The notes below the pieces were generated by a model that searched no databases, was not told where the DNA came from, and saw only the letters and a program-made list of their open reading frames with translations. The position numbers and the translations under genes were made by a program. A stretch of 64,000 bases of DNA from an uncultured Candidatus Saccharibacteria bacterium (lineage in GTDB: Bacteria; Patescibacteriota; WWE3; UBA101185; UBA10185): NCBI GenBank assembly GCA_964605725.1, contig CAZSDQ010000001.1, forward strand, positions 12,090 to 76,089. The letters run 5' to 3'. Below are positions 6,802 to 19,301 of this stretch, one piece after another (the stretch's first letter is position 1; the number at the start of each line of letters is the position of its first letter).

Positions 6802-6870
6802 GTTGATTTTAAGTATTTCTATTATAGTTCATATATCAGTAGAAATTTATAGTATAATTCTAGATGTTAT

Positions 6871-6957
6871 GGGCGGGTGGCGGAATTGGTATACGCGCAA
6901 CGTTGAGGTCGTTGTGGGGTAAAACCCGTGCAGGTTCAACTCCTGTCTCGCCCACCA
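6871..6957 (+). tRNA. tRNA-Leu (anticodon GAG), long variable arm, CCA encoded
   Basis: Acceptor GGGCGGG/CTCGCCC, anticodon stem CAACG/CGTTG with loop TTGAGGT, T loop TTCAACT. Confidence 0.9.
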
Positions 6958-6968
6958 AAGTAATGTAA

Positions 6969-8804
6969 ATGAAAATCAAAAACATCAGATTATTTTTATT
7001 ACTTTCGATTGTCACACTTTCATTTGTAACCCCAGCAAAAGTATTTGCTGAAAGAATATCTGACTTTAATTCAGAAGTAGACATACGAAAAGATGGTACA
7101 GTTGAGATATCAGAGACAATAAAATATGACTTTGAATCAGCACAAAAACACGGTTTAGTTAGAGAGATAATCTATAAAAGAACAAATCAAGATAACAAAA
7201 CCTACATTATTGATATTGATGTTCTAAGTGTGACAGACGAAAACGGCAATCCTTATAATTTTTCTACATCTAAAATTGGAAGTTACATAGAATTAAAAAT
7301 TGGTGATGCAGATAAATTAATTTCAGGTCAGAAAACCTACATTATAAAATACAAACTTTCAGGTTCAATGACGTACTTTACTGACCACGATGAGTTTTAC
7401 TGGAATCTTGTTGGTTTTGATTGGCTAATACCTATTAGAAATTTCACTGCATCAATTTCAGTACCCGGATCTATCCGTCAAGACGATCTAAAATATATTT
7501 GTTACGAAGGGGTAAAGGACAGCACTTCCCAATCTTGTTTGATAAATTTTTCTGAAAACAAAATTCAAGTGTCTTCTAGTAAAAGTCTTAATCCAGGTGA
7601 AAATGTTACCGTCTCGTTGTCGTTTCCCAAAAATGCTATTGAAGTTCTTGAACCAAGAGAAGACAAGTCAGGAATTTTTTTACTAATATTCCAAGTATTT
7701 TTAGGAATATTGGCTTCACTTTGGTATCTTTTTTTACCCATCAAAATATTTTCAGATTATGTTAAACAAAAAAGTTTTTTAAAGAGTCACGAAAGAATAG
7801 TTTCCGCTTGGTTTGAACCTCCCCAATACGATGGCGGTAATGTGTTTTCACCCGCAGAAACAGGATTTATTGTTGATGGAGTAATAGATCATAAGGAGTT
7901 AACGGCTACCATAATACATTTAGCCCAAAGAGGATTTCTAAAAATCAAAGAGGACGATAAAAAGCACTTCTCGTTTGTGAGATTAAAAAGTATAGATTCT
8001 CCCGATCTTAGAAATTTTGAACAACAGGTTATGAGCGCAATCTTTAAAGAAGGGGTTTCAATTAAAGATCTTGATGAAAAATCACTTGAAAATTTAAACC
8101 AAGGATTACCTAATTTGGAAAAGTTTAACGATCTTATAAAAATCCCACAACTAGTTAATCTTGAAAACGAGATCAAGGGTACTCCTGTAGATGTGAAAGA
8201 GGAGGTAAGAGACACCGATTTGAAAAAATCGAAAACAATGTTTGGAAAAATCACTAAATTTAATAAATACGTGGAAGAAGAAGTAGTAGAAAAAGGTATG
8301 TTTGAAGATAAACCCACAGAAACTTATACAAAGAATATGACACTGTTCGCCCTAGGATTAACGACTTTAAACCCTTTGTTATCAATTGCAGGATTTGTTG
8401 CTGGAAGAAAATCAACAAAAAGAACATTAAAGGGAATTGAAAAGTATTCTGAAGCAATGTCTTTAATGAATTTTTTAAAATCTCAGGATGAACAAATAAA
8501 TTTTCAAGCAATGAACCAAATGTTTTTTGAAAAACTTTTACCTTATGCCGCTGCTTTTGGTGTTGAAAAACAATGGGCAAAGAGATTCAAGGATATTTAT
8601 TTAACAAAACCTGATTGGTATGAAGGAGAAAACTTTTCTAATAGCGTTTTTATTAGTTCGATGACTGGTAATATTGGCGGTTCTATGAAATCTTCTTACA
8701 GTTCTGGCATGTCTTCTACAAGATCTTCTTCAGGTTTTTCGTCCGGGTTTTCAGGAGGTTCTTCGGGAGGTGGCGGCGGTGGAGGTGGTGGAGGTAGCTG
8801 GTAA
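6969..8804 (+). CDS. DUF2207-family membrane protein with Gly/Ser-rich C-terminal tail
   Basis: Signal peptide, N-terminal beta-rich ectodomain, central and C-terminal TM helices. The tail SSGFSSGFSGGSSGGGGGGGGGGSW is typical of DUF2207 proteins. Confidence 0.7.
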   Translation: MKIKNIRLFLLLSIVTLSFVTPAKVFAERISDFNSEVDIRKDGTVEISETIKYDFESAQKHGLVREIIYKRTNQDNKTYIIDIDVLSVTDENGNPYNFSTSKIGSYIELKIGDADKLISGQKTYIIKYKLSGSMTYFTDHDEFYWNLVGFDWLIPIRNFTASISVPGSIRQDDLKYICYEGVKDSTSQSCLINFSENKIQVSSSKSLNPGENVTVSLSFPKNAIEVLEPREDKSGIFLLIFQVFLGILASLWYLFLPIKIFSDYVKQKSFLKSHERIVSAWFEPPQYDGGNVFSPAETGFIVDGVIDHKELTATIIHLAQRGFLKIKEDDKKHFSFVRLKSIDSPDLRNFEQQVMSAIFKEGVSIKDLDEKSLENLNQGLPNLEKFNDLIKIPQLVNLENEIKGTPVDVKEEVRDTDLKKSKTMFGKITKFNKYVEEEVVEKGMFEDKPTETYTKNMTLFALGLTTLNPLLSIAGFVAGRKSTKRTLKGIEKYSEAMSLMNFLKSQDEQINFQAMNQMFFEKLLPYAAAFGVEKQWAKRFKDIYLTKPDWYEGENFSNSVFISSMTGNIGGSMKSSYSSGMSSTRSSSGFSSGFSGGSSGGGGGGGGGGSW

Positions 8805-8838
8805 GTTATCTATTTTTTGTTTATAATGTTTTAGTTAT

Positions 8839-8913
8839 GCGACGGTAGTTCAGTGGTAGAATGTCTCCTTGCCAAGGAGAAGGTCGCCGGTTCGAATCCG
8901 GTCCGTCGCTCCA
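8839..8913 (+). tRNA. tRNA-Gly (anticodon GCC), CCA encoded
   Basis: Acceptor GCGACGG/CCGTCGC, anticodon stem TCTCC/GGAGA with loop TTGCCAA. Confidence 0.9.
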
Positions 8914-8963
8914 AGTTTTTGTTTTGAAAAGGTAACAAGTTAGGTTGTACGTTTTTTAGTTAT

Positions 8964-9038
8964 GCGACGGTAGTTCAGTGGTAGAATGTCTCCCTTCCAA
9001 GGAGAAGGTCGCCGGTTCGAATCCGGTCCGTCGCTCCA
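8964..9038 (+). tRNA. tRNA-Gly (anticodon UCC), CCA encoded
   Basis: Identical to the GCC gene except for the anticodon loop (CTTCCAA). Lies 125 nt downstream in tandem. Confidence 0.9.
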
Positions 9039-9093
9039 CTTTTTTATATAATTTTTTCCAAATAATTAAGGTATAATTGAGGCGTTACATACT

Positions 9094-9214: not shown

Positions 9215-9290
9215 GGGGCGGTAGCCAAGGTGGTCAAGGCACCGGTCTGAAAAACCGGCTATGTGGGTTCGACTCCCACCCTCCCCACCA
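9215..9290 (+). tRNA. tRNA-Phe (anticodon GAA), CCA encoded
   Basis: Anticodon stem CCGGT/ACCGG with loop CTGAAAA, T arm GTGGG-TTCGACT-CCCAC. The acceptor stem has one C-U mismatch. Confidence 0.8.
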
Positions 9291-9342
9291 AATCCTGATA
9301 TATGTTGTTGTAGCAACTAATTAATTATCTAATAAATAATTT

Positions 9343-9807
9343 TTACTTGACCAATTTCTTCTCCATGCAGACCATCTCTATATCCCCGAATAGTATATTT
9401 TCTAAGGTTTTAAACCCTAAACTAGTATAAAAACGCTTAGCATTTAAAGTAGCGTTTAAAGATATCTTATTTTTGTTATTTTTTATAAATTCCTTTTCAA
9501 TATATCTATACAATTTCTTACCGTAACCTTTTCCTTGATAATCCGGATCTATCTGTATTTGGTAAAGATTCTGATCTTCCAAATCATATTGAGCAAAGCC
9601 AATTATCTTATTGCTCTTTTTAATAATTATCCAAGAAGTGTTATCAAATTGAGATAGCACATTTTTTTCATTAATTTGCCCTAACCATGACTCAATAACT
9701 TTAGGATCGTAGATATCTGCATTAGTTTCTACAATGCATTTTTTATGTATTATTACGATGTTTTTTATATTCTCTTTTTTTGCTTGGGTGATTATTGAAT
9801 TATTCAT
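9343..9807 (-). CDS. GNAT-family N-acetyltransferase
   Basis: Acetyl-CoA binding motif A QIDPDYQGKGYGKKLYRYIE. About 150 aa, typical GNAT size. Confidence 0.8.
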   Translation of the reverse strand: MNNSIITQAKKENIKNIVIIHKKCIVETNADIYDPKVIESWLGQINEKNVLSQFDNTSWIIIKKSNKIIGFAQYDLEDQNLYQIQIDPDYQGKGYGKKLYRYIEKEFIKNNKNKISLNATLNAKRFYTSLGFKTLENILFGDIEMVCMEKKLVK

Positions 9808-9821
9808 TTATATTTAATGAT

Positions 9822-9873
9822 AAAAAAGATGGGGACGATATACATAGAATTAAAATTCATGTTTAAAGTCCCC
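9822..9873 (-). terminator. Hairpin plus T-run after the small peptide ORF (terminator/attenuator candidate)
   Basis: On the minus strand: GGGGAC ... GTCCCC outer stem with inner AACATGAATT/AATTCTATGT pairing, followed by ATCTTTTTT. Confidence 0.45.
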
Positions 9874-9890
9874 TCTGGTTTGGCCAATAA

Positions 9891-10001
9891 TTAATCACCG
9901 TGCTTTTTCTTGCAACCCCCATCTTGCTTACAACATCCAGGATGGGAATGTCCCGTAACACGAGTTTTATTCTTGGGCCAAGTTACTAACACTTTCTTCA
10001 T
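9891..10001 (-). CDS. 36-aa Cys/His/Lys-rich peptide, candidate RiPP precursor
   Basis: My own translation: MKKVLVTWPKNKTRVTGHSHPGCCKQDGGCKKKHGD*. SD AAGGAGAGGAGG then 7 nt then ATG. It starts 28 nt after the rSAM/SPASM stop on the same strand and is followed by a hairpin and T-run. Absent from the ORF track because of its size. Confidence 0.6.
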   Translation of the reverse strand: MKKVLVTWPKNKTRVTGHSHPGCCKQDGGCKKKHGD

Positions 10002-10029
10002 TATGGTACCTCCTCTCCTTCGTCATGAT

Positions 10030-11289
10030 TTAGAATCGGTCTATATCAACCTCATCTATAACGATTGGGGCAATTCTATCATCTGTAGCTATCAACAGCA
10101 ATAGCTCCGGTATTAGCGTGTGTTGAACTACACATGTGAAATTAGATTTTTTAAGTGGAAAACCATTTTTCCAAATACTAGCCATCGGACATCCACCATG
10201 GCATATCATTCTGAGATTGCAGTTTGAACAACCACCTAATTGATTCACAAAGTGTATATCTTCGAGTTTTTTCTTTTTGTTTAAATCAAATACCAAACCA
10301 TTTTCCACCTTACCGTAGATAAAAATATCAGCGTAAGGATCATTAGGTCTTGCAACTTCTACACAAGATGTAATTAGCCCGTGTGGTGTTAAAACTTTAT
10401 TACCGTTTGGCATTCCGCAGTAAAATTCATTGCTAGGCTCTGATAAAAAACCTGTATCTAACGTTATTTTATATCCTTTGTCTGCAATGTGTTTTATTAC
10501 TTCTATCATTGCTCTGGAAAACTTTATTGGATCAGGTTCCATAGACAAATCTGCTCTTGACACATCAGTAGATAGCGCAGGTTCAATTTTTATACTTTTT
10601 ACACCTAAAGAGCTTACTAAATCTACAGTAGATATAAGCGTATCTAATCCTTCTGACGTAACAATACACTGTACTATAACATCTACTCCTGATTGGATTA
10701 ATTTTTTGATGTTTTCAATTACTATACTTGAGGATCCACTACCATCAGCAAAAGGTCTTTGAATATTTTGCCTTACGCCATCAAATGATACACGAACACC
10801 AGCATTATTTTTAATTAGCCATTCACAAGCATTATTTCCGAAAGTTCCATTGCTAACAACGTTAACTTGGACTTCATCAAATAGTGTTTTTGCGTATTCT
10901 ACAATTTCCAAAACCCTTTCGAAGTATAATAAAGGTTCTCCGCCACCCACTAGAAATAAATCGAGATAATCTCCATCAGAGCTCTCTCGTACGGAATTAA
11001 GAGCTTCTTTTGCTGTTTCAAAGGAGATTAACTCCTTTGATTCTCCTCCTCGTGCGTAGCAATATTCACACCTGAGATTACAATCAAAAGTCACTATAAT
11101 TCCTAAGGAGGCGTTGTTCCTTGAGTGTTCATTTATATTTTCAATGGGAACAGAATAAGCCTCGAACATTAAACTTTCTAAATCCTCATCAGTAGCATCT
11201 AATCCAAATAAGATGTTTCCAGGGTAAACAACGGCAAAGTTTCTTATTCCGGGTAATTTAACAACACACACCTCATTTTTCTCAACCAT
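10030..11289 (-). CDS. Radical SAM / SPASM-domain peptide-modifying enzyme (maturase-like)
   Basis: CX3CX2C = CNLRCEYC at about aa 70. C-terminal 7-Cys SPASM pattern: C-x17-C (with G-x4-C), CSNCNLRMICHGGC (C-x2-C-x5-C-x3-C) and a trailing Cys in FTCVV. SD AAGGAGAGAGAA lies upstream. Confidence 0.9.
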   Translation of the reverse strand: MVEKNEVCVVKLPGIRNFAVVYPGNILFGLDATDEDLESLMFEAYSVPIENINEHSRNNASLGIIVTFDCNLRCEYCYARGGESKELISFETAKEALNSVRESSDGDYLDLFLVGGGEPLLYFERVLEIVEYAKTLFDEVQVNVVSNGTFGNNACEWLIKNNAGVRVSFDGVRQNIQRPFADGSGSSSIVIENIKKLIQSGVDVIVQCIVTSEGLDTLISTVDLVSSLGVKSIKIEPALSTDVSRADLSMEPDPIKFSRAMIEVIKHIADKGYKITLDTGFLSEPSNEFYCGMPNGNKVLTPHGLITSCVEVARPNDPYADIFIYGKVENGLVFDLNKKKKLEDIHFVNQLGGCSNCNLRMICHGGCPMASIWKNGFPLKKSNFTCVVQHTLIPELLLLIATDDRIAPIVIDEVDIDRF

Positions 11290-11354
11290 TTCTCTCTCCT
11301 TATTCTAAAGATAATTTTTTATTGGGCTGATTCTACATTATGCTTTAAATAGAA

Positions 11355-11855
11355 TCAAATCATAGTTACTAACCCAATGTTTTTAGGCCCCTCAAAATCA
11401 AAAGTTACTACCTTATATTTCACACCGTTAGATTCGTAGAATTTGGATATTTCACTAATCATTGCATCTCTTCCTAGTTTTTTATTTTGATTCCAAAAAT
11501 TACAACAAGGTATTAAAATTGTATTCGTCCCTAGAGCGGACTTAGCTACTTCAATTGTGGCTTCATCCGGATGTAAACCAATAACTAGATCGTAATAAGA
11601 TGCGTCTTCGGAGGAAAACTCTTCTTGTAAGTTATCAACTCCTAATAGCGGGTATCCTCTGGGGTCAACCACGGTAGATTTATAGTTATATTTTTTATTT
11701 AACACTCTCGATAACATACCTCTTCCTCCGGCAACATCAGCAATATATTCAATGTTTCTTCCAAATGTCTCAAAAACAAAACCAGCCACAACCTCAAATC
11801 TTTGAGGGTCCCCGTGAAATTTATGTCCTTTATATGTACCACCCTTAGTGCTCAT
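11355..11855 (-). CDS. Putative class I SAM-dependent methyltransferase-like protein
   Basis: Rossmann motif I-like IADVAGGRGMLS (DxGxGxG) followed by an acidic loop (VVDPR). 166 aa. The assignment rests on motifs only. Confidence 0.45.
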   Translation of the reverse strand: MSTKGGTYKGHKFHGDPQRFEVVAGFVFETFGRNIEYIADVAGGRGMLSRVLNKKYNYKSTVVDPRGYPLLGVDNLQEEFSSEDASYYDLVIGLHPDEATIEVAKSALGTNTILIPCCNFWNQNKKLGRDAMISEISKFYESNGVKYKVVTFDFEGPKNIGLVTMI

Positions 11856-11861
11856 AGAGGG

Positions 11862-11867
11862 ATTATA
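11862..11867 (-). promoter_or_regulatory. -10 box TATAAT (minus strand) 6 nt upstream of ATG 11855
   Basis: The minus strand reads TAGTATAATCCCTCTATG. No SD is present, which is leaderless geometry. Confidence 0.4.
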
Positions 11868-11900
11868 CTAGAGAAAATGTATTGCTAATAAATTATTAAG

Positions 11901-11933
11901 TTCCCAACAACCTCCCAGATAGTCCACCAAATT
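11901..11933 (+). repeat. 33-nt direct repeat, copy A (intergenic)
   Basis: TTCCCAACAACCTCCCAGATAGTCCACCAAATT. Matches copy B at 32/33 and copy C at 30/33. Confidence 0.85.
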
Positions 11934-11972
11934 ATTGGTATTGCTGTTATAACAATAAATAACATAACCTGA

Positions 11973-11978
11973 TATAAT
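11973..11978 (+). promoter_or_regulatory. -10 box TATAAT 6 nt upstream of ATG 11985
   Basis: GATATAATTTACCCATG with no SD, which is leaderless geometry. Confidence 0.4.
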
Positions 11979-11984
11979 TTACCC

Positions 11985-12539
11985 ATGAAAAAATGGAAAT
12001 TAAAATCATCAAAACCTGTATTTGAATCCAAATGGCTAACAATAAAATCAAATGATTATGAACTACCTAATGGAGATATAGCAAAAGAATACTACCATCT
12101 CTATCGTCCTGATTATGTTTTAGTGATTGCACATATGGATAATAATATTTTAATAGAAAAACAATATCGTAGAGGAGTTGATGATTTTGTTTATGAATTA
12201 CCCGCAGGATGGGTTGATAAAAATGAAACTCCAGAACAAGCTGCAATTAGAGAACTAAAAGAGGAAACAGGATATACTGGAGACGCTACTTTTTTAGGTA
12301 CTCTTTATCCTCAACCCGGTTTTAGTTCTATGCTTGCACATATTGTAGAAATAGAATTAAACGGGACTATTGAGGATAGAAATTTGGAAAAAGATGAAAA
12401 CATTGAATTTGAATTAATGAATATTGAAAAAGTGGATTCGATGATAAGCGAGAATAAATTTCAAGACATGGGTATGCTTGCTGCTCTAAATTTACTCAGA
12501 CAAAAAATTGGTAACAATTCTCAACAACCTCCCAGATAG
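11985..12539 (+). CDS. Nudix hydrolase (ADP-ribose pyrophosphatase-like)
   Basis: Nudix box GWVDKNETPEQAAIRELKEETGY (GX5EX7REUXEEXGU). The last 6 codons and the stop lie inside repeat copy B. Confidence 0.85.
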   Translation: MKKWKLKSSKPVFESKWLTIKSNDYELPNGDIAKEYYHLYRPDYVLVIAHMDNNILIEKQYRRGVDDFVYELPAGWVDKNETPEQAAIRELKEETGYTGDATFLGTLYPQPGFSSMLAHIVEIELNGTIEDRNLEKDENIEFELMNIEKVDSMISENKFQDMGMLAALNLLRQKIGNNSQQPPR

Positions 12540-12550
12540 TCCACCAAATT
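12518..12550 (+). repeat. 33-nt direct repeat, copy B (3' end of the Nudix gene)
   Basis: TTCTCAACAACCTCCCAGATAGTCCACCAAATT. Encodes ..SQQPPR* and extends 11 nt past the stop. Confidence 0.85.
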
Positions 12551-12614
12551 TTTTATTTTATAATAACAGCCAAAAGTAAGTGTAATTTTTGGATAGTGGG
12601 TGGTAAAGTCGAAC

Positions 12615-12623
12615 TGGTATAAT
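12615..12623 (+). promoter_or_regulatory. Extended -10 box TGgTATAAT 6 nt upstream of ATG 12630
   Basis: CTGGTATAATAATTTTATG with no SD. Confidence 0.4.
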
Positions 12624-12629
12624 AATTTT

Positions 12630-13325
12630 ATGACATCTATCGCGGAAATACTTGGACCAGAAAAAGTTGAGGAGCTGACAAGCATACAGTTTGAAACCTC
12701 GGAATCAATACAACCGAAAAGAGATAAATATGAGCCGTATAAGGAAATACTTGAAACAAATAATGGGTTATGTGAACAAATTCAAAGAGTATTCTCACAT
12801 TCTCACATTGTTCCCGCAGTGCACATAACTTCTAGTGCATTTAAAAATGAAATGGGTGAAGTAACCTCTGGATTTTTAGACAATATAGCAGCAAATGGTT
12901 TTAGAGCAAAAGATACGAATGTTGGCGTTTTTATGAAAAGAGAGGGATTACGAGAACCAGCTATACCAGTAAATTTTGTGGAGAGACCAGAGAAATTTTT
13001 AAGAGAGCTTGAGACAATTATAAGACACTATTATCATCATGGAGTACGAACTAATAAGGCATTATTGAGAGATAGTAGAAATATAGGCACAGGTGTTCCC
13101 GTGATGTTATTAATAGATACAAGTAACATAGATTTAGAGCGAGGTAGTGATTACGAGGATCACTATAAACTTGGTACGAGTGCTTCTATCAGTAGGATTG
13201 TTGGAGAAATAGACTTGGAGGGAATTGGAACTGAAATTAGAGAAAAATTACCAGAAATCGCTACTAAATTTTTAGAATTAACTGAGTCTTACCTAGATAA
13301 AACTTCCCAACATCCTCCCAGATAG
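12630..13325 (+). CDS. Hypothetical protein
   Basis: I prefer ATG 12630 (MTSIAEILGPEK...) to the track's GTG 12600 because of the -10 box geometry. I recognise no motif. The last 6 codons and the stop lie inside repeat copy C (..SQHPPR*). Confidence 0.6.
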   Translation: MTSIAEILGPEKVEELTSIQFETSESIQPKRDKYEPYKEILETNNGLCEQIQRVFSHSHIVPAVHITSSAFKNEMGEVTSGFLDNIAANGFRAKDTNVGVFMKREGLREPAIPVNFVERPEKFLRELETIIRHYYHHGVRTNKALLRDSRNIGTGVPVMLLIDTSNIDLERGSDYEDHYKLGTSASISRIVGEIDLEGIGTEIREKLPEIATKFLELTESYLDKTSQHPPR

Positions 13326-13336
13326 TCCACCAGATC
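13304..13336 (+). repeat. 33-nt direct repeat, copy C (3' end of the hypothetical gene)
   Basis: TTCCCAACATCCTCCCAGATAGTCCACCAGATC. Confidence 0.85.
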
Positions 13337-13362
13337 TATCACAAATATTATCTGTGCTTTGC

Positions 13363-13368
13363 TATACT
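13363..13368 (+). promoter_or_regulatory. -10 box TATACT 7 nt upstream of GTG 13376
   Basis: GCTATACTCTCATTAGTG with no SD. Confidence 0.35.
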
Positions 13369-13375
13369 CTCATTA

Positions 13376-14056
13376 GTGAATTTAGAGAAATTAAATATCA
13401 GTAAAAATTCAAAAGTTCTATTTATCTATCCCCATCCAGATGATGAAACCTATTTTAATGCTGGACTGATTCAGAATTTAGTTAAAGAAAATATCACCAC
13501 TAGGATTTTATGTTTAACTAAAGGAGAGGCTTCTTCTCTTAAATATGGGATTAAGCATAATAATTTAGGAGAAATAAGGAAAAAAGAGTTCGAATCGGTC
13601 ATGAAATTTTTAAAAGTTTCTGAACACAAGATTTTAGATTTTGAAGATGGAAATTTAGGTAATGAAAATTCCCTTTCTGAGATACTAGAAAAAGAAATTA
13701 ATTTATTTGAACCTGATGTGGTAATAACTTTCGAACCAAGCGGAGTATATGGGCACAGGGATCATATCGTGGTATCACAGGTTGTGACTGATCTCAAAAA
13801 ACTTAGAAAATTTAATTTAATATATTCTACTGTTCCATTTAATTACCACACCTCCCAAAAAAACTCATTAAATTTTAAAATTGATAGTAAACCGCTAGAA
13901 CCCGATATGATTTTAAAACTGAGTCCAAATGAAGTTGTTAATAAACTAATATGTTTAATAAAATATAAGAGTCAGGTAAACAACGAAAGATTGATTCAAA
14001 TAATCCTAAAGCCTTATTTGTACAAAGAATGCTATTGTATCTACCCAAATCTATAA
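13376..14056 (+). CDS. PIG-L/LmbE-family N-acetylglucosaminyl deacetylase
   Basis: Family motifs YPHPDDETYFNAG and GHRDHIVV (HxDH). Confidence 0.8.
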   Translation: MNLEKLNISKNSKVLFIYPHPDDETYFNAGLIQNLVKENITTRILCLTKGEASSLKYGIKHNNLGEIRKKEFESVMKFLKVSEHKILDFEDGNLGNENSLSEILEKEINLFEPDVVITFEPSGVYGHRDHIVVSQVVTDLKKLRKFNLIYSTVPFNYHTSQKNSLNFKIDSKPLEPDMILKLSPNEVVNKLICLIKYKSQVNNERLIQIILKPYLYKECYCIYPNL

Positions 14057-14129
14057 GTAACGTAAACTTTCGGTGTTTAAAAAATGATAAAATACCTAAT
14101 AATTTTTAATTGCTTTTTTTTAACTCAAC

Positions 14130-15233
14130 ATGATCAATATTAGAAAAAAAAGAATATTTGTATTAGTTCTGATACTCACGATAATAATTTTGAGTTTGAT
14201 TATTTACCTACTCTTTAACAAATTATCTGGCTCGTCTAATCTAAAAGAAGAAACCACCCAAATACCTGAAAAATCAAACTCTTCTTCAGATAGTAATTCT
14301 GAAGATTCTAATACAGAATCAACAGAGGATTATTCTTTTGAAGATCTCACAATTCCTTATCTGCGCTCAAGACAATACACAGGAAAATTAGGTAATTTAG
14401 AAAAATATAGCGAAAACGGCTCTTATACTAGCTATTTAACCAGTTACGATTCCGATGGTTTGCGCATTAACGGTCTTATTACTATCCCGAAGGATGAAAA
14501 ACCTGAAGACGGGTGGCCTGCAATAGTGTTTGTTCACGGTTATATCCCGCCTCAAGACTACCAAACAACTAAAAATTATGAGAGCTATGTTGACTATTTA
14601 GCTAAAAACGGCTTTGTGGTCTTTAAAATCGACCTTAGAGGTCACGGAAAATCAGAAGGTGAGGCCGAGGGCGGTTATTACTCTTCTGGCTACGTAATTG
14701 ATACTTTAAACGCGTATAACGCCCTTCTGACAAGCGATTTTGTAAATCCTGAGAAAGTAGGACTTTGGGGTCATAGTATGGCGGGAAATGTTATTTTTAG
14801 AGCTTTTGTAGCTAAAAAAGACATTAAAGCCATTTCAATTTGGGCTGGGGCAGTTTACACGTATTCGGATTTATCAGAATACGGTATTTCTGATAACAGC
14901 TACAAACCACCTTCTCAAGAATCAGAATCCAGGAAAAAGCGAAACCTGTTATTTGAAAAATACGGTAATTTTGATCCAAATAATGAATTTTGGATGAAGG
15001 TAGTTCCTACAAACTATCTAGGAGGTTTAGATGGGGTAGTTCAAATTAATCACGCAGTGGATGATCCTGTTGTTAGCATTGAATATACAAGAAACTTAAG
15101 CTCTGTTCTTCTTGAAACCACTTTGAAACACGAAATAAACGAATATTCAACCGGCGGACACAATATTTCGGGGTCTTCTTTTGATAAAGCTATGCAAAAT
15201 ACCGTGGATTTTTTTAAGAGAACGTTTGAATAG
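14130..15233 (+). CDS. Alpha/beta hydrolase (S9 peptidase / dienelactone hydrolase-like), membrane anchored
   Basis: N-terminal TM, Ser-rich linker, oxyanion VFVHGY, nucleophile elbow GHSMAG, C-terminal catalytic His region (TGGHN). Confidence 0.75.
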   Translation: MINIRKKRIFVLVLILTIIILSLIIYLLFNKLSGSSNLKEETTQIPEKSNSSSDSNSEDSNTESTEDYSFEDLTIPYLRSRQYTGKLGNLEKYSENGSYTSYLTSYDSDGLRINGLITIPKDEKPEDGWPAIVFVHGYIPPQDYQTTKNYESYVDYLAKNGFVVFKIDLRGHGKSEGEAEGGYYSSGYVIDTLNAYNALLTSDFVNPEKVGLWGHSMAGNVIFRAFVAKKDIKAISIWAGAVYTYSDLSEYGISDNSYKPPSQESESRKKRNLLFEKYGNFDPNNEFWMKVVPTNYLGGLDGVVQINHAVDDPVVSIEYTRNLSSVLLETTLKHEINEYSTGGHNISGSSFDKAMQNTVDFFKRTFE

Positions 15234-19062: not shown

Positions 19063-19139
19063 GGGCGATTAGCTCAGTTGGTTAGAGCATTCGGTTTACA
19101 TCCGAAAGGTCGTAGGTTCGATCCCTACATCGCCCACCA
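19063..19139 (+). tRNA. tRNA-Val (anticodon UAC), CCA encoded
   Basis: Acceptor GGGCGAT/ATCGCCC, anticodon stem TTCGG/CCGAA with loop TTTACAT, T arm GTAGG-TTCGATC-CCTAC. Confidence 0.9.
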
Positions 19140-19166
19140 AAATTTTGCTGTGAGTGAAACGAACAG

Positions 19167-19208
19167 ACATCCGGTAGGTCCTTGGTTCGAATCCATGCGG
19201 ACCCACCA
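19167..19208 (+). other. tRNA 3' half fragment 1 (from anticodon nt 35 to CCA), acceptor strand complementary to the 19020 fragment
   Basis: ACAT-CCGGT-AGGTC-CTTGG-TTCGAAT-CCATG-CGGACCC-A-CCA. CGGACCC pairs 7/7 (one G-U) with GGGTCTG at 19020-19026. Confidence 0.6.
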
Positions 19209-19235
19209 AATTTTCGTACGCGAACGAAGTGAGCG

Positions 19236-19278
19236 TACATCCGAAAGGTCACAGGTTCGAATCCTTTACCACCCACCA
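19236..19278 (+). other. tRNA 3' half fragment 2 (Val-like, from anticodon TAC to CCA)
   Basis: TACATCCGAAAGGTC is identical to the intact tRNA-Val over 15 nt. It then has a different T arm (ACAGG-TTCGAAT-CCTTT) and acceptor strand ACCACCC-A-CCA. I saw no matching 5' half in the window. Confidence 0.6.
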
Positions 19279-19301
19279 AACTTTAATTTAGATAAAAAAA
19301 T

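Follow-up and report, generated by a model that had tools for sequence, protein, structure and literature searches.

A tRNA-Phe-anchored array of small, probably mobile gene cassettes separated by a short direct repeat in Patescibacteria

Introduction

Why should two unrelated neighbouring genes end in the same codons and stop inside the same short repeat? The question is raised by a stretch of 64,000 nucleotides (hereafter, the window) of contig CAZSDQ010000001.1 from an uncultured Candidatus Saccharibacteria bacterium, in which three direct copies of a short element stand around the genes of a Nudix hydrolase and of a hypothetical protein of 231 amino acids (hyp231). An initial annotation of this DNA proposed that the layout is a cassette array built by site-specific or homology-driven insertion. 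Our analysis supports an array through its variable content, its tRNA-Phe anchor and the position of its boundaries at the repeat, and does not single out either mechanism. The feature is a tRNA-anchored additive cassette array, a miniature integrase-less form that is integron-like in behaviour. Its cassettes have a common anatomy, the tRNA-Phe 3' end and the repeat are interchangeable at a six-nucleotide core, CCACCA, and cassette content and order vary among relatives over segments of uneven divergence. The repeats are probably attachment-type recombination sites of an array of small mobile gene cassettes anchored at tRNA-Phe.

Patescibacteria (the Candidate Phyla Radiation) have genomes of about 1 Mb with few recognised mobile elements, and accessory-gene exchange in this group is therefore poorly understood. 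The locus is a compact hot spot where single genes with their own promoters, encoding hydrolases, transferases, transporters and a putative peptide-maturation set, change between close relatives. Our literature searches found no description of such an array system in Patescibacteria.

The repeat and the genes that end in it

Each copy of the repeat consists of a 23-nt arm followed by the core:

11901-11932, plus strand: repeat copy A; arm 11901-11923, core CCACCA 11924-11929, then AAT; closes cassette 1 at its 3' end and joins it to the Nudix cassette
12518-12549, plus strand: repeat copy B; arm 12518-12540, core 12541-12546
13304-13335, plus strand: repeat copy C; arm 13304-13326, core 13327-13332

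Over 33 nt, direct reading gives identities to copy A of 32/33 and 30/33. The consensus has three matches in the 64 kb, all on the plus strand, and none in 100 dinucleotide-preserving shuffles; a repeat-family search of the window recovers the identical three copies, and an nhmmer profile built from 17 repeat copies finds no fourth within the 64 kb. The three co-oriented copies noticed at the outset are thus borne out by sequence reading, shuffles and repeat search. All three are also present in 10 independently assembled contigs of the same organism, and the repeats are therefore not an assembly artefact.

The invariant 19-mer of the repeat was scanned in 185,579 species genomes, in the JGI metagenomes and in IMG/VR, followed by approximate and profile searches. 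The exact repeat core occurs in only 4 of the species genomes. Genuine matches also keep the flank TTCNCAACA, and all of them lie on low-GC contigs of Patescibacteria/"Saccharibacteria" (loci L002, L004, L006 and L023; related loci are referred to by such numbers below). Genuine copies number 2-5 per locus, one between consecutive units, and are always co-oriented with each other and with tRNA-Phe. Among the metagenome-assembled genomes with intact repeats are that of the window, whose Nudix protein is MBP7785718.1, and GCA_029569355.1, GCA_046128295.1, GCA_964569755.1 and JAHYJU01; the source metagenomes, such as JGI 3300010351, 3300009696 and 3300010357 and ENA ERZ27257415, are from digesters. 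Repetitive extragenic palindromes, bacterial interspersed mosaic elements and miniature inverted-repeat transposable elements have many scattered and usually palindromic copies; here there are 3 copies in 64 kb, all in the array, and neither the 64-kb scan nor the public data show the genome-wide dispersal that would have spoken against the initial annotation. A phage origin was rejected, as the viral or metagenomic, marine phage-like contigs L017, L018, L020, L021, L024 and L025 have only a 19-22-mer in common with the repeat, inside phage coding sequences and with unrelated flanks. Their match, CCTCCCAGATAGTCCACCAAAT, is due to chance: it reads there as antisense sequence to the 5' end of a gene for a membrane protein (MNKERPTAFGGLSGRQDSPMEKF...) and has no relation to the element of Patescibacteria. 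The high-GC contigs L001, L003, L005, L019 and L022 are likewise chance matches to the 19-22-mer.

The Nudix gene and hyp231 enter the repeat in one shared frame and stop at its TAG (positions 20-22), copies B and C supplying the codons for SQQPPR or SQHPPR and the stop to two unrelated genes. Sequence conservation extends 11 nt past this stop codon. Copy A is intergenic, lying between the minus-strand gene at 11355-11855 and the Nudix gene, with at most 10 open codons running into it. Reading of the sequence and its open reading frames (ORFs) has left all three of these points as they were first described. In all loci, wherever an ORF extends into the arm (Nudix, hyp231, AAA_18 and, in L040, a small ORF), it does so in the same frame and always uses the arm's TAG, and cargo genes that do not reach the arm stop at most 20 codons before it. 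Distant Nudix homologues end near ...LNLFKQKR, about 8 residues earlier, which indicates that the SSQQPPR-type tail, found only in close relatives, is read-through into the arm. The array in this way accounts for an annotation oddity, the C-terminal SSQQPPR tail common to unrelated proteins.

Several other identities of the repeat were considered and rejected. A small minus-strand ORF over copy A (48 amino acids, ...WWTIWEVVGN) loses its frame in copies B and C and in L006. An RNA element finds no support, the only Rfam matches in the window being tRNAs and the RNA and DNA folds of the copies and of 100-nt junctions being no better than those of shuffles. No intrinsic terminator (GC-rich hairpin with a U-tract) was seen, with no terminator-like site at any copy and folds equal to shuffles. 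ARAGORN and Rfam find no tRNA or tRNA fragment at the copies, and a tRNA-fragment parse by hand fails because the stretch before the would-be 3' strand of the T-stem cannot pair and the segment from GTTC to CCA is 6 nt too long.

The tRNA-Phe gene as anchor of the array

About 12 related Patescibacteria loci were compared, their contexts having been fetched through homologues of the Nudix gene, of hyp231 and of the upstream DUF2207 gene. An intact tRNA-Phe(GAA) gene stands directly before the array in all of the loci with a left flank (10/10). A tRNA-Phe-led array was found in the window and in L023/L041, L026, L029, L032, L033, L034-39, L040 (the full contig of L004), L043 and L045; the distant relatives L032, L033 and L043, in which the arms have diverged or decayed, added little. 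In the window the anchor is the following gene:

9215-9290, plus strand: tRNA-Phe(GAA), found by ARAGORN and Rfam; its last six bases, CCACCA at 9285-9290, are the first core and the anchor of the array

The tRNA's own ...CCCCACCA stands as the first site of the array. The Nudix cassette follows a genuine tRNA-Phe in L026 and L034-39, a repeat in the window, L002 and L037, and an exact 20-nt duplicate of the tRNA-Phe 3' end in L029. Six Nudix-led junctions can be aligned from CCACCAAAT exactly and are unrelated to the left of it; in the window, similarity starts at 11924, with CCACCA. The resemblance of the repeat's end to a tRNA CCA end, remarked upon at first sight, is therefore matched by the finding that the tRNA-Phe 3' end and the repeat can replace one another at CCACCA. 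When the two are aligned without gaps (CTCCCA-CCCTCC-CCACCA in the tRNA, CTCCCA-GATAGT-CCACCA in the repeat), two hexamers are common. The repeat accordingly copies little of the tRNA end, the common part being only CCACCA and the CTCCCA six bases upstream; exact 18-20-nt duplicates of the tRNA-Phe 3' end occur in some relatives and not in the window. Two sites of L040, at 7203 and 10139, consist of arm, CCACCA and a GGAAATCTCGC... hairpin, and this flank is also found behind the intact tRNA-Phe of L029 and of L045. An array end that keeps the native tRNA flank, as in L040, is the product expected of integration at the tRNA.

In five loci the tRNA-Phe core or a repeat core is followed by a non-coding stretch of about 130-180 nt (L029 9633-9793; L037 2234-2403; L040 7232-7412; L043 14440-14572; L045 430-590). 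It contains a hairpin that resembles a terminator (GGAAAGCTCGC...GCGAGCTTTTC or a variant form), a CGAACNAAGTGAG motif and 18-20 nt that duplicate the tRNA-Phe 3' end exactly, and it behaves like a gene-less unit of the array.

Anatomy of the cassettes

To the right of the tRNA-Phe gene the window array contains the following features:

9291-11900, minus strand: body of cassette 1, four reversed genes, 2.6 kb
9343-9807, minus strand: GNAT acetyltransferase (Pfam)
9891-10001, minus strand: Cys-rich peptide of 36 amino acids (MKKVLVTWPKNKTRVTGHSHPGCCKQDGGCKKKHGD), in cassette 1
10030-11289, minus strand: radical-SAM enzyme (Pfam)
11355-11855, minus strand: methyltransferase-like protein of 166 amino acids, in cassette 1
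11930-11984, plus strand: promoter module of the Nudix cassette, type 1; degraded right dyad arm, TTATAACAATAAATAAC motif, extended -10 TGATATAAT at 11970-11978, ATG 6 nt downstream
11985-12539, plus strand: Nudix hydrolase cargo (Pfam NUDIX, E = 4.5e-15); last 7 codons and stop from copy B
12547-12629, plus strand: promoter module of the hypothetical gene, type 2; extended -10 TGGTATAAT at 12615-12623; contains GATAGTGGGTGGTAAAGTCGAAC
12630-13325, plus strand: hypothetical cargo gene hyp231, 231 amino acids (241 from GTG 12600); last codons and stop from copy C
13333-13375, plus strand: promoter module of the PIG-L unit, short; TGCTATACT at 13360-13368, GTG start at 13376
13376-14056, plus strand: PIG-L/LmbE-type deacetylase (Pfam PIG-L, E = 1.6e-31), the last repeat-led unit

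The window thus holds three full cassettes (the reversed 2.6-kb radical-SAM cassette, Nudix and the hypothetical gene), followed by PIG-L with a promoter module and without a 3' arm. No repeat element or 3' arm was found after PIG-L in 14057-14129, so that PIG-L joins the conserved hydrolase-C39 flank.

The window-specific segment spans from just after the CCACCA of the tRNA to the CCACCA of copy A, and L026, L029 and L034-39 lack cassette 1 between tRNA-Phe and Nudix. In the window the tRNA-Phe is followed by a degraded type-1-like module, AATCCTGATATATGTTGTTGTAGCAAC, which indicates that 9291-11929 is a single inserted unit, missing in L026, L029 and L035. Judged by the proteins that it encodes, the reversed cassette 1 may be a small peptide-maturation set, of the kind that makes ribosomally synthesized and post-translationally modified peptides, carried as one cassette. 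A radical-SAM gene that is 25% identical to that of the window also occurs in L040, beyond the array.

The right limits of the plus-strand units fall at the cores as well. The Nudix module is conserved with L002, L026, L029, L035 and L037 whatever stands on its left, and the similarity of the Nudix cassette stops just after the core of copy B in the comparison with L029 and just before a variant core (see below) in that with L002. The hyp231 protein has no Pfam or PHROGs family; its cassette is 97.8% identical at the nucleotide level behind HIT (L029/L030) and behind EamA (L045), and the similarity to L029 stops at 13332, the end of the copy C core. From 13304 rightwards L035 is 99.5% identical to the window and has a different cassette, the PadR operon, on the left; the PIG-L module also precedes PIG-L in L035, L036 and L039, there behind the PadR operon.

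By sequence reading, the starts at 11985, 12630 and 13376 each have a TGnTATAAT/TATACT box 6-7 nt upstream, in agreement with the -10 box and start that had been reported after each copy; a strict promoter scan scores the first of the three boxes only (the match ends at 11978, TG included). The type 1 module has the form CCTTGGGATTGTTGTTATAACAATAAATAAC...TGATATAAT, its first part being the inverted partner of the arm's CAACAA-CC-TCCCA. The type 2 module, about 75 nt long, follows CCACCA before 8 different genes in 6 loci, behind repeat or tRNA alike, as found by alignment; it accompanies hyp231 in the window and in L029, and an identical type-1 variant accompanies HIT in L029, L002 and L037. 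The sequence to the right of the core therefore moves with the downstream gene, and the 23-nt arm belongs to the 3' end of the upstream cargo.

The initial annotation saw no obvious internal dyad in the element. This stands for the 33-mer itself and does not stand once the next 14 nt are included: with these, the junctions of many relatives form a dyad, CAACAA-CC-TCCCA ... TGGGA-TTGTTG, centred on the core. Direct reading of the type-1 junctions gives TCCCA-N18-TGGGA, with the axis between the two CCA triplets of the core. In the window copy A alone keeps the dyad, in degraded form.

The GATAGTGGGTGGTAAAGTCGAAC stretch (12590-12613 in the window, and in the type-2 modules of L002, L029, L040 and L041) has a reverse complement, GTTCGACTTTACCACCCAC..., that resembles the T-loop-to-acceptor stretch of tRNA-Phe, GTTCGACTCCCACCC, and it can be regarded as a piece of tRNA-like sequence in inverted orientation, situated about 55 nt rightward of the core.

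Cassette content and order among relatives

At least nine array configurations with shared cassettes were found, including the following (genes of the minus strand are marked):

Window: after tRNA-Phe, radical-SAM block (minus), Nudix, hyp231, PIG-L, then hydrolase
L029/30: after tRNA-Phe, Nudix, AAA_18, HIT, hyp231, radical-SAM (minus)
L026: after tRNA-Phe, Nudix, MTase185, hydrolase
L034-39: after tRNA-Phe, Nudix, PadR-FtsX-ABC-BSH, PIG-L
L037: after tRNA-Phe, PadR operon, DUF4177, radical-SAM (minus), Nudix, HIT
L002: EamA, Nudix, HIT
L045/46: after tRNA-Phe, EamA, hyp231, radical-SAM (minus), hydrolase
L023/41: after tRNA-Phe, MTase215, 197-residue protein, SDR, SDR, hydrolase
L040: after tRNA-Phe, 243-residue protein, ..., 373-residue protein, 247-residue protein

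Relatives do show cassette variability, as the idea of an array had predicted: different genes stand between the same repeats, and the boundaries lie at the repeat. The units measure 0.6-3.4 kb, mostly contain a single gene and occasionally four, and occur in either orientation. Beyond the set of the window, relatives carry HIT, a kinase-like AAA_18 protein, the PadR-ABC operon, EamA, SDRs and methyltransferases. In pairwise local alignments the right limits of the Nudix, hyp231 and HIT units fall just after the 6-nt core, with one Nudix comparison ending just before it.

Relatives whose cassettes are 89-99% identical differ in cassette set and order. An identical Nudix protein is found in two different orders, and an identical hyp231 protein has HIT before it in one arrangement and EamA in another. 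L035 and L037 share a Nudix cassette at 99.2% nucleotide identity, the position of which is swapped with that of a 93.7% identical PadR operon. Divergence is uneven along the array: L029 and L002 share a HIT cassette at 99% and a Nudix cassette at 88%, and identity between the window and L035 amounts to 99.5% from copy C rightwards, 89% over Nudix and 71% over the left backbone. The spans compared are window 13304-14608 with L035 8896-10199 (99.5%) and window 6870-9038 with L035 6-2197 (about 71%, DUF2207/tRNA backbone). From these identities the array appears to mark a boundary between segments of different histories.

A variant core, TTATCA, which equals CCACCA with three C-to-T changes, characterises one junction lineage ahead of HIT and the PadR operon:

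TTATCA: L029 10996; L002 1638; L034-39 (e.g., L035 5417); L037 7986; L047 28

Other tRNA genes of the cluster

Other tRNA genes of the cluster are insertion points in relatives as well (L026 240-1800; L041 12082-12707; L034 7012-9310; L043 12087-14363; L029 4244-5748). A DUF5680 gene, with or without AAA_33, or the gene of a 614-residue protein is found between tRNA-Gly(tcc) and tRNA-Cys, an Orn/Arg decarboxylase gene between tRNA-Cys and tRNA-Phe, and an FtsK-like gene between tRNA-Arg and tRNA-Lys. At its end, the insert in L026 has a short ...TCCTCCAAAAT stretch copied from the tRNA-Gly end. In the window, tRNA-Gly(gcc) and tRNA-Gly(tcc) with their flanks (8829-8920 and 8954-9045) form a 92-nt tandem pair that is 96% identical and differs mainly in the anticodon, which suggests a recent duplication followed by an anticodon switch.

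Behind tRNA-Val(TAC), which lies further to the right at 19063-19139, stand two partial copies resembling tRNA-Val, from anticodon loop to CCA, at 19166-19214 and 19236-19284, about 70 nt apart. Each is preceded by a small hairpin of the GCGAACGAAGTGAGCG type, no genes lie between them, and L026 has the same layout at 87% identity. These copies look like stacked classical att remnants, of a site type different from that of the tRNA-Phe array.

How the array may be built

The reading that we consider probable, that the repeats are attachment-type sites of mobile cassettes, would work as follows. Each cassette would extend from one CCACCA core to the next and comprise an extended -10 module, the cargo and the conserved 23-nt arm TTCCCAACAACCTCCCAGATAGT, whose TAG would serve as the stop codon wherever the cargo ORF abuts it. 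The 3' end of tRNA-Phe would be the primary docking site, and recombination at or next to CCACCA would allow cassettes to be inserted, lost, reordered and passed between lineages. The reaction would be catalysed by a site-specific recombinase, of the tyrosine or serine type, encoded elsewhere in the genome or on another element; the cassettes would pass through a circular form, and their modules would drive leaderless transcription. A recombinase acting in trans is suggested by four features, the tRNA 3'-end target, the conserved arm, the core-centred dyad and the native tRNA flank kept at the array end, but these features do not prove the enzyme.

Several observations weigh against this reading. 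Neither a Pfam scan of 37 window ORFs nor a PHROGs scan of 10 proteins (9 of them from the window, including 7 window ORFs without a Pfam assignment) found an integrase or recombinase; together the scans covered nearly all of the larger ORFs of the window, apart from the gene of a 2687-residue protein and a few short ORFs. None was found in the gene tables of the related loci within 10 kb on either side, and the gene table of the 133-kb contig that bears P0009 was included in the recombinase check; the initial remark that no recombinase lies nearby still holds. The type-2 junction and several others have no right dyad arm. The breakpoints do not fall at one point: TTATCA is linked to HIT in three loci and also to one Nudix-to-PadR junction, and the arm variant TTCA occurs both with HIT and with EamA. 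A single crossover point between GT and CCACCA, suggested by the HIT and TTATCA data, was rejected as its pattern is broken by the junctions of L035 and L045. Finally, neighbouring junctions are alike over about 60 nt, which could support homologous recombination, and the backbone itself is mosaic.

It is conceivable, then, that no dedicated recombinase is involved and that the junction (arm, core and module start, about 30-60 nt) provides short homology for RecA-type recombination after DNA uptake, in the manner of 'minimal mobile elements', the array being a hot spot of homologous recombination. We regard this as unlikely, and yet it stays a serious rival, because the TTATCA and TTCA linkages, which place breakpoints to either side of the core, do not agree with one crossover point and are compatible with exchange within the shared junction of about 60 nt. 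The failure to find a recombinase in the scanned window ORFs and locus gene tables speaks for it too, as does the backbone, where identity varies from 71% to 99.5% between the window and L035 and from 73% to 95% between the window and L029; mosaicism of this strength implies frequent homologous exchange in the region. What such exchange explains poorly is that junctions led by the tRNA and those led by a repeat have nothing in common to the left of CCACCA and yet join the same modules exactly there. The 23-nt arm, moreover, hardly varies between unrelated cassettes or between several species-level genomes; the location at the 3' end of a tRNA and the core-centred dyad are hallmarks of integrase sites; and the native tRNA flank is retained at the array end.

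A purely regulatory or RNA role of the repeat fits the data poorly, and we think it very unlikely that the repeat is mainly an expression signal, be it a regulon's operator or upstream promoter element or a signal for mRNA 3'-end formation, termination or processing, with the cassette layout being secondary. Each copy does lie upstream of a promoter and at or just after a stop codon, the -10 box is fixed 40 nt after the 32-mer in five type-1 junctions, and no intrinsic terminators separate the array genes. However, the distance from repeat to promoter ranges over 26-74 nt in the other junctions, there is no hairpin with a U-tract and no Rfam match, fold z-scores are about 0, and copy A has no co-directional upstream gene. 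The arm moves with the upstream gene and the promoter module with the downstream one, the tRNA 3' end stands in for the repeat at the start of the array, and the repeat occurs nowhere else in the 64 kb. Simple decay also fits poorly and is the least probable account: the exact 18-20-nt tRNA-Phe 3' duplicates and the non-coding remnant of about 150 nt in L029, L037, L040, L043 and L045, together with the classical partial tRNA-Val copies at 19166-19284, would suit a history in which ordinary large islands or prophages with integrases integrated successively at tRNA-Phe, were reduced to single cargo genes and left displaced partial tRNA ends as scars, but random decay would not leave a near-invariant 23-nt arm unlike the tRNA, and it explains neither the standard promoter modules and intact single genes of more than 20 different cassettes nor the near-identical cassettes in new orders in close relatives.

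The reading of the repeats as attachment-type sites can be taken further. The array may be a self-contained gene-capture platform of Patescibacteria, integron-like but differently built, in which the tRNA 3' end docks the cassettes, the 23-nt arm with CCACCA plays the part of attC, the leaderless promoters are borne by the cassettes and the recombinase is unlinked, possibly an Xer-like housekeeping enzyme or a member of a new family. We put this forward tentatively and think it somewhat doubtful; if it were true, cargo ORFs would have to be fitted between the standard 5' and 3' modules by some cassette-forming process. Should a dedicated recombinase be found, the array would be a second, independently built cassette platform to set beside integrons, and it would offer a short att pair (the tRNA-Phe end and a site of about 45 bp) for genetics in organisms poor in tools, as well as a collection of portable, leaderless promoters.

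Comparison with known systems

The array resembles integrons, including chromosomal ones whose repeats are highly similar, such as the arrays of Vibrio cholerae repeats (VCR) in Vibrio, in its co-oriented, mostly single-gene cassettes with one site per cassette that overlaps the 3' end and stop of the ORF, in the shuffling, gain and loss of cassettes, and in a cargo of accessory enzymes, transporters and unknown proteins. The cassettes are thus single-gene, co-oriented and variable as in integrons, but they are not promoterless, since each has its own TGnTATAAT box and does not depend on a Pc promoter. Unlike in integrons, no intI was found beside the array, a tRNA 3' end takes the place of attI as primary site, and the site is defined by sequence (23-nt arm and 6-nt core) and not by a fold. 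The attC site of integrons is an imperfect palindrome of 57-141 nt with R'' (RYYYAAC) and R' (GTTRRRY) boxes and the crossover in R'. This architecture was rejected for the present site, which has 29-32 nt, folds no better than shuffles, has a dyad in type-1 junctions only and switches at the centre of that dyad (CCACCA), not in a terminal R'. Modules mobilised by Xer at dif sites (integrative mobile elements exploiting Xer, and pdif modules) use a 28-bp site with two partly palindromic 11-bp arms and a 6-bp spacer; this architecture was also rejected, as the 32-mer has no internal dyad and the dyad arms of type 1 are 18 nt apart.

In architecture the array is closest to the tandem islands at tRNA and tmRNA genes. 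In Dehalococcoides, islands with a serine integrase module are stacked downstream of ssrA and split by a 20-bp repeat copying the ssrA 3' end, which is preceded by an element-derived 15-bp motif (PMC3146451). In Alteromonas, additive islands at tRNA genes, including tRNA-Phe, carry near-identical cassettes in diverged genomes (PMC4898812). As in both, the present array lies downstream of a stable-RNA gene, its direct repeats contain some sequence of that gene's 3' end, its content varies among close relatives and near-identical cassettes occur in diverged backgrounds; as in Dehalococcoides, a conserved element-derived motif (15 bp there, 23 nt here) stands just upstream of the repeat. Unlike in those islands, the units are of 0.6-3.4 kb, mostly single genes, and carry neither an integrase nor an integration module; what they have in common with the tRNA is CCACCA, with CTCCCA six bases upstream of it, and not 20-45 nt; and every unit carries a standard leaderless-type promoter module.

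The tycheposons of Prochlorococcus are stacked at tRNAs and separated by partial tRNA copies (10.1101/2020.12.28.424599). Both systems belong to streamlined genomes in which flexible genes are concentrated beside tRNA genes, and both consist of stacked elements with plug-in cargo cassettes. Tycheposons, however, encode a tyrosine or large serine recombinase of their own, often along with replication genes, whereas the cassettes described here contain cargo genes only and their repeat is not a plain partial tRNA. Site-specific accretion of cis-mobilizable elements (CIMEs) gives tandem arrays of non-autonomous, att-bounded segments that use an integrase in trans (reviewed in PMC5704250). The present cassettes are similar in being non-autonomous and probably att-bounded, in their tandem arrangement and in the trans integrase that they would require. 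They differ in that CIMEs are decay products of integrative and conjugative or integrative and mobilizable elements, kilobases to tens of kilobases long and without a standard promoter or arm, and in that no helper element was identified at the array. Specific to the array are its miniature, integrase-less and mostly single-gene units, its very short tRNA-derived core, its standard arm and leaderless-type modules, and its host phylum.

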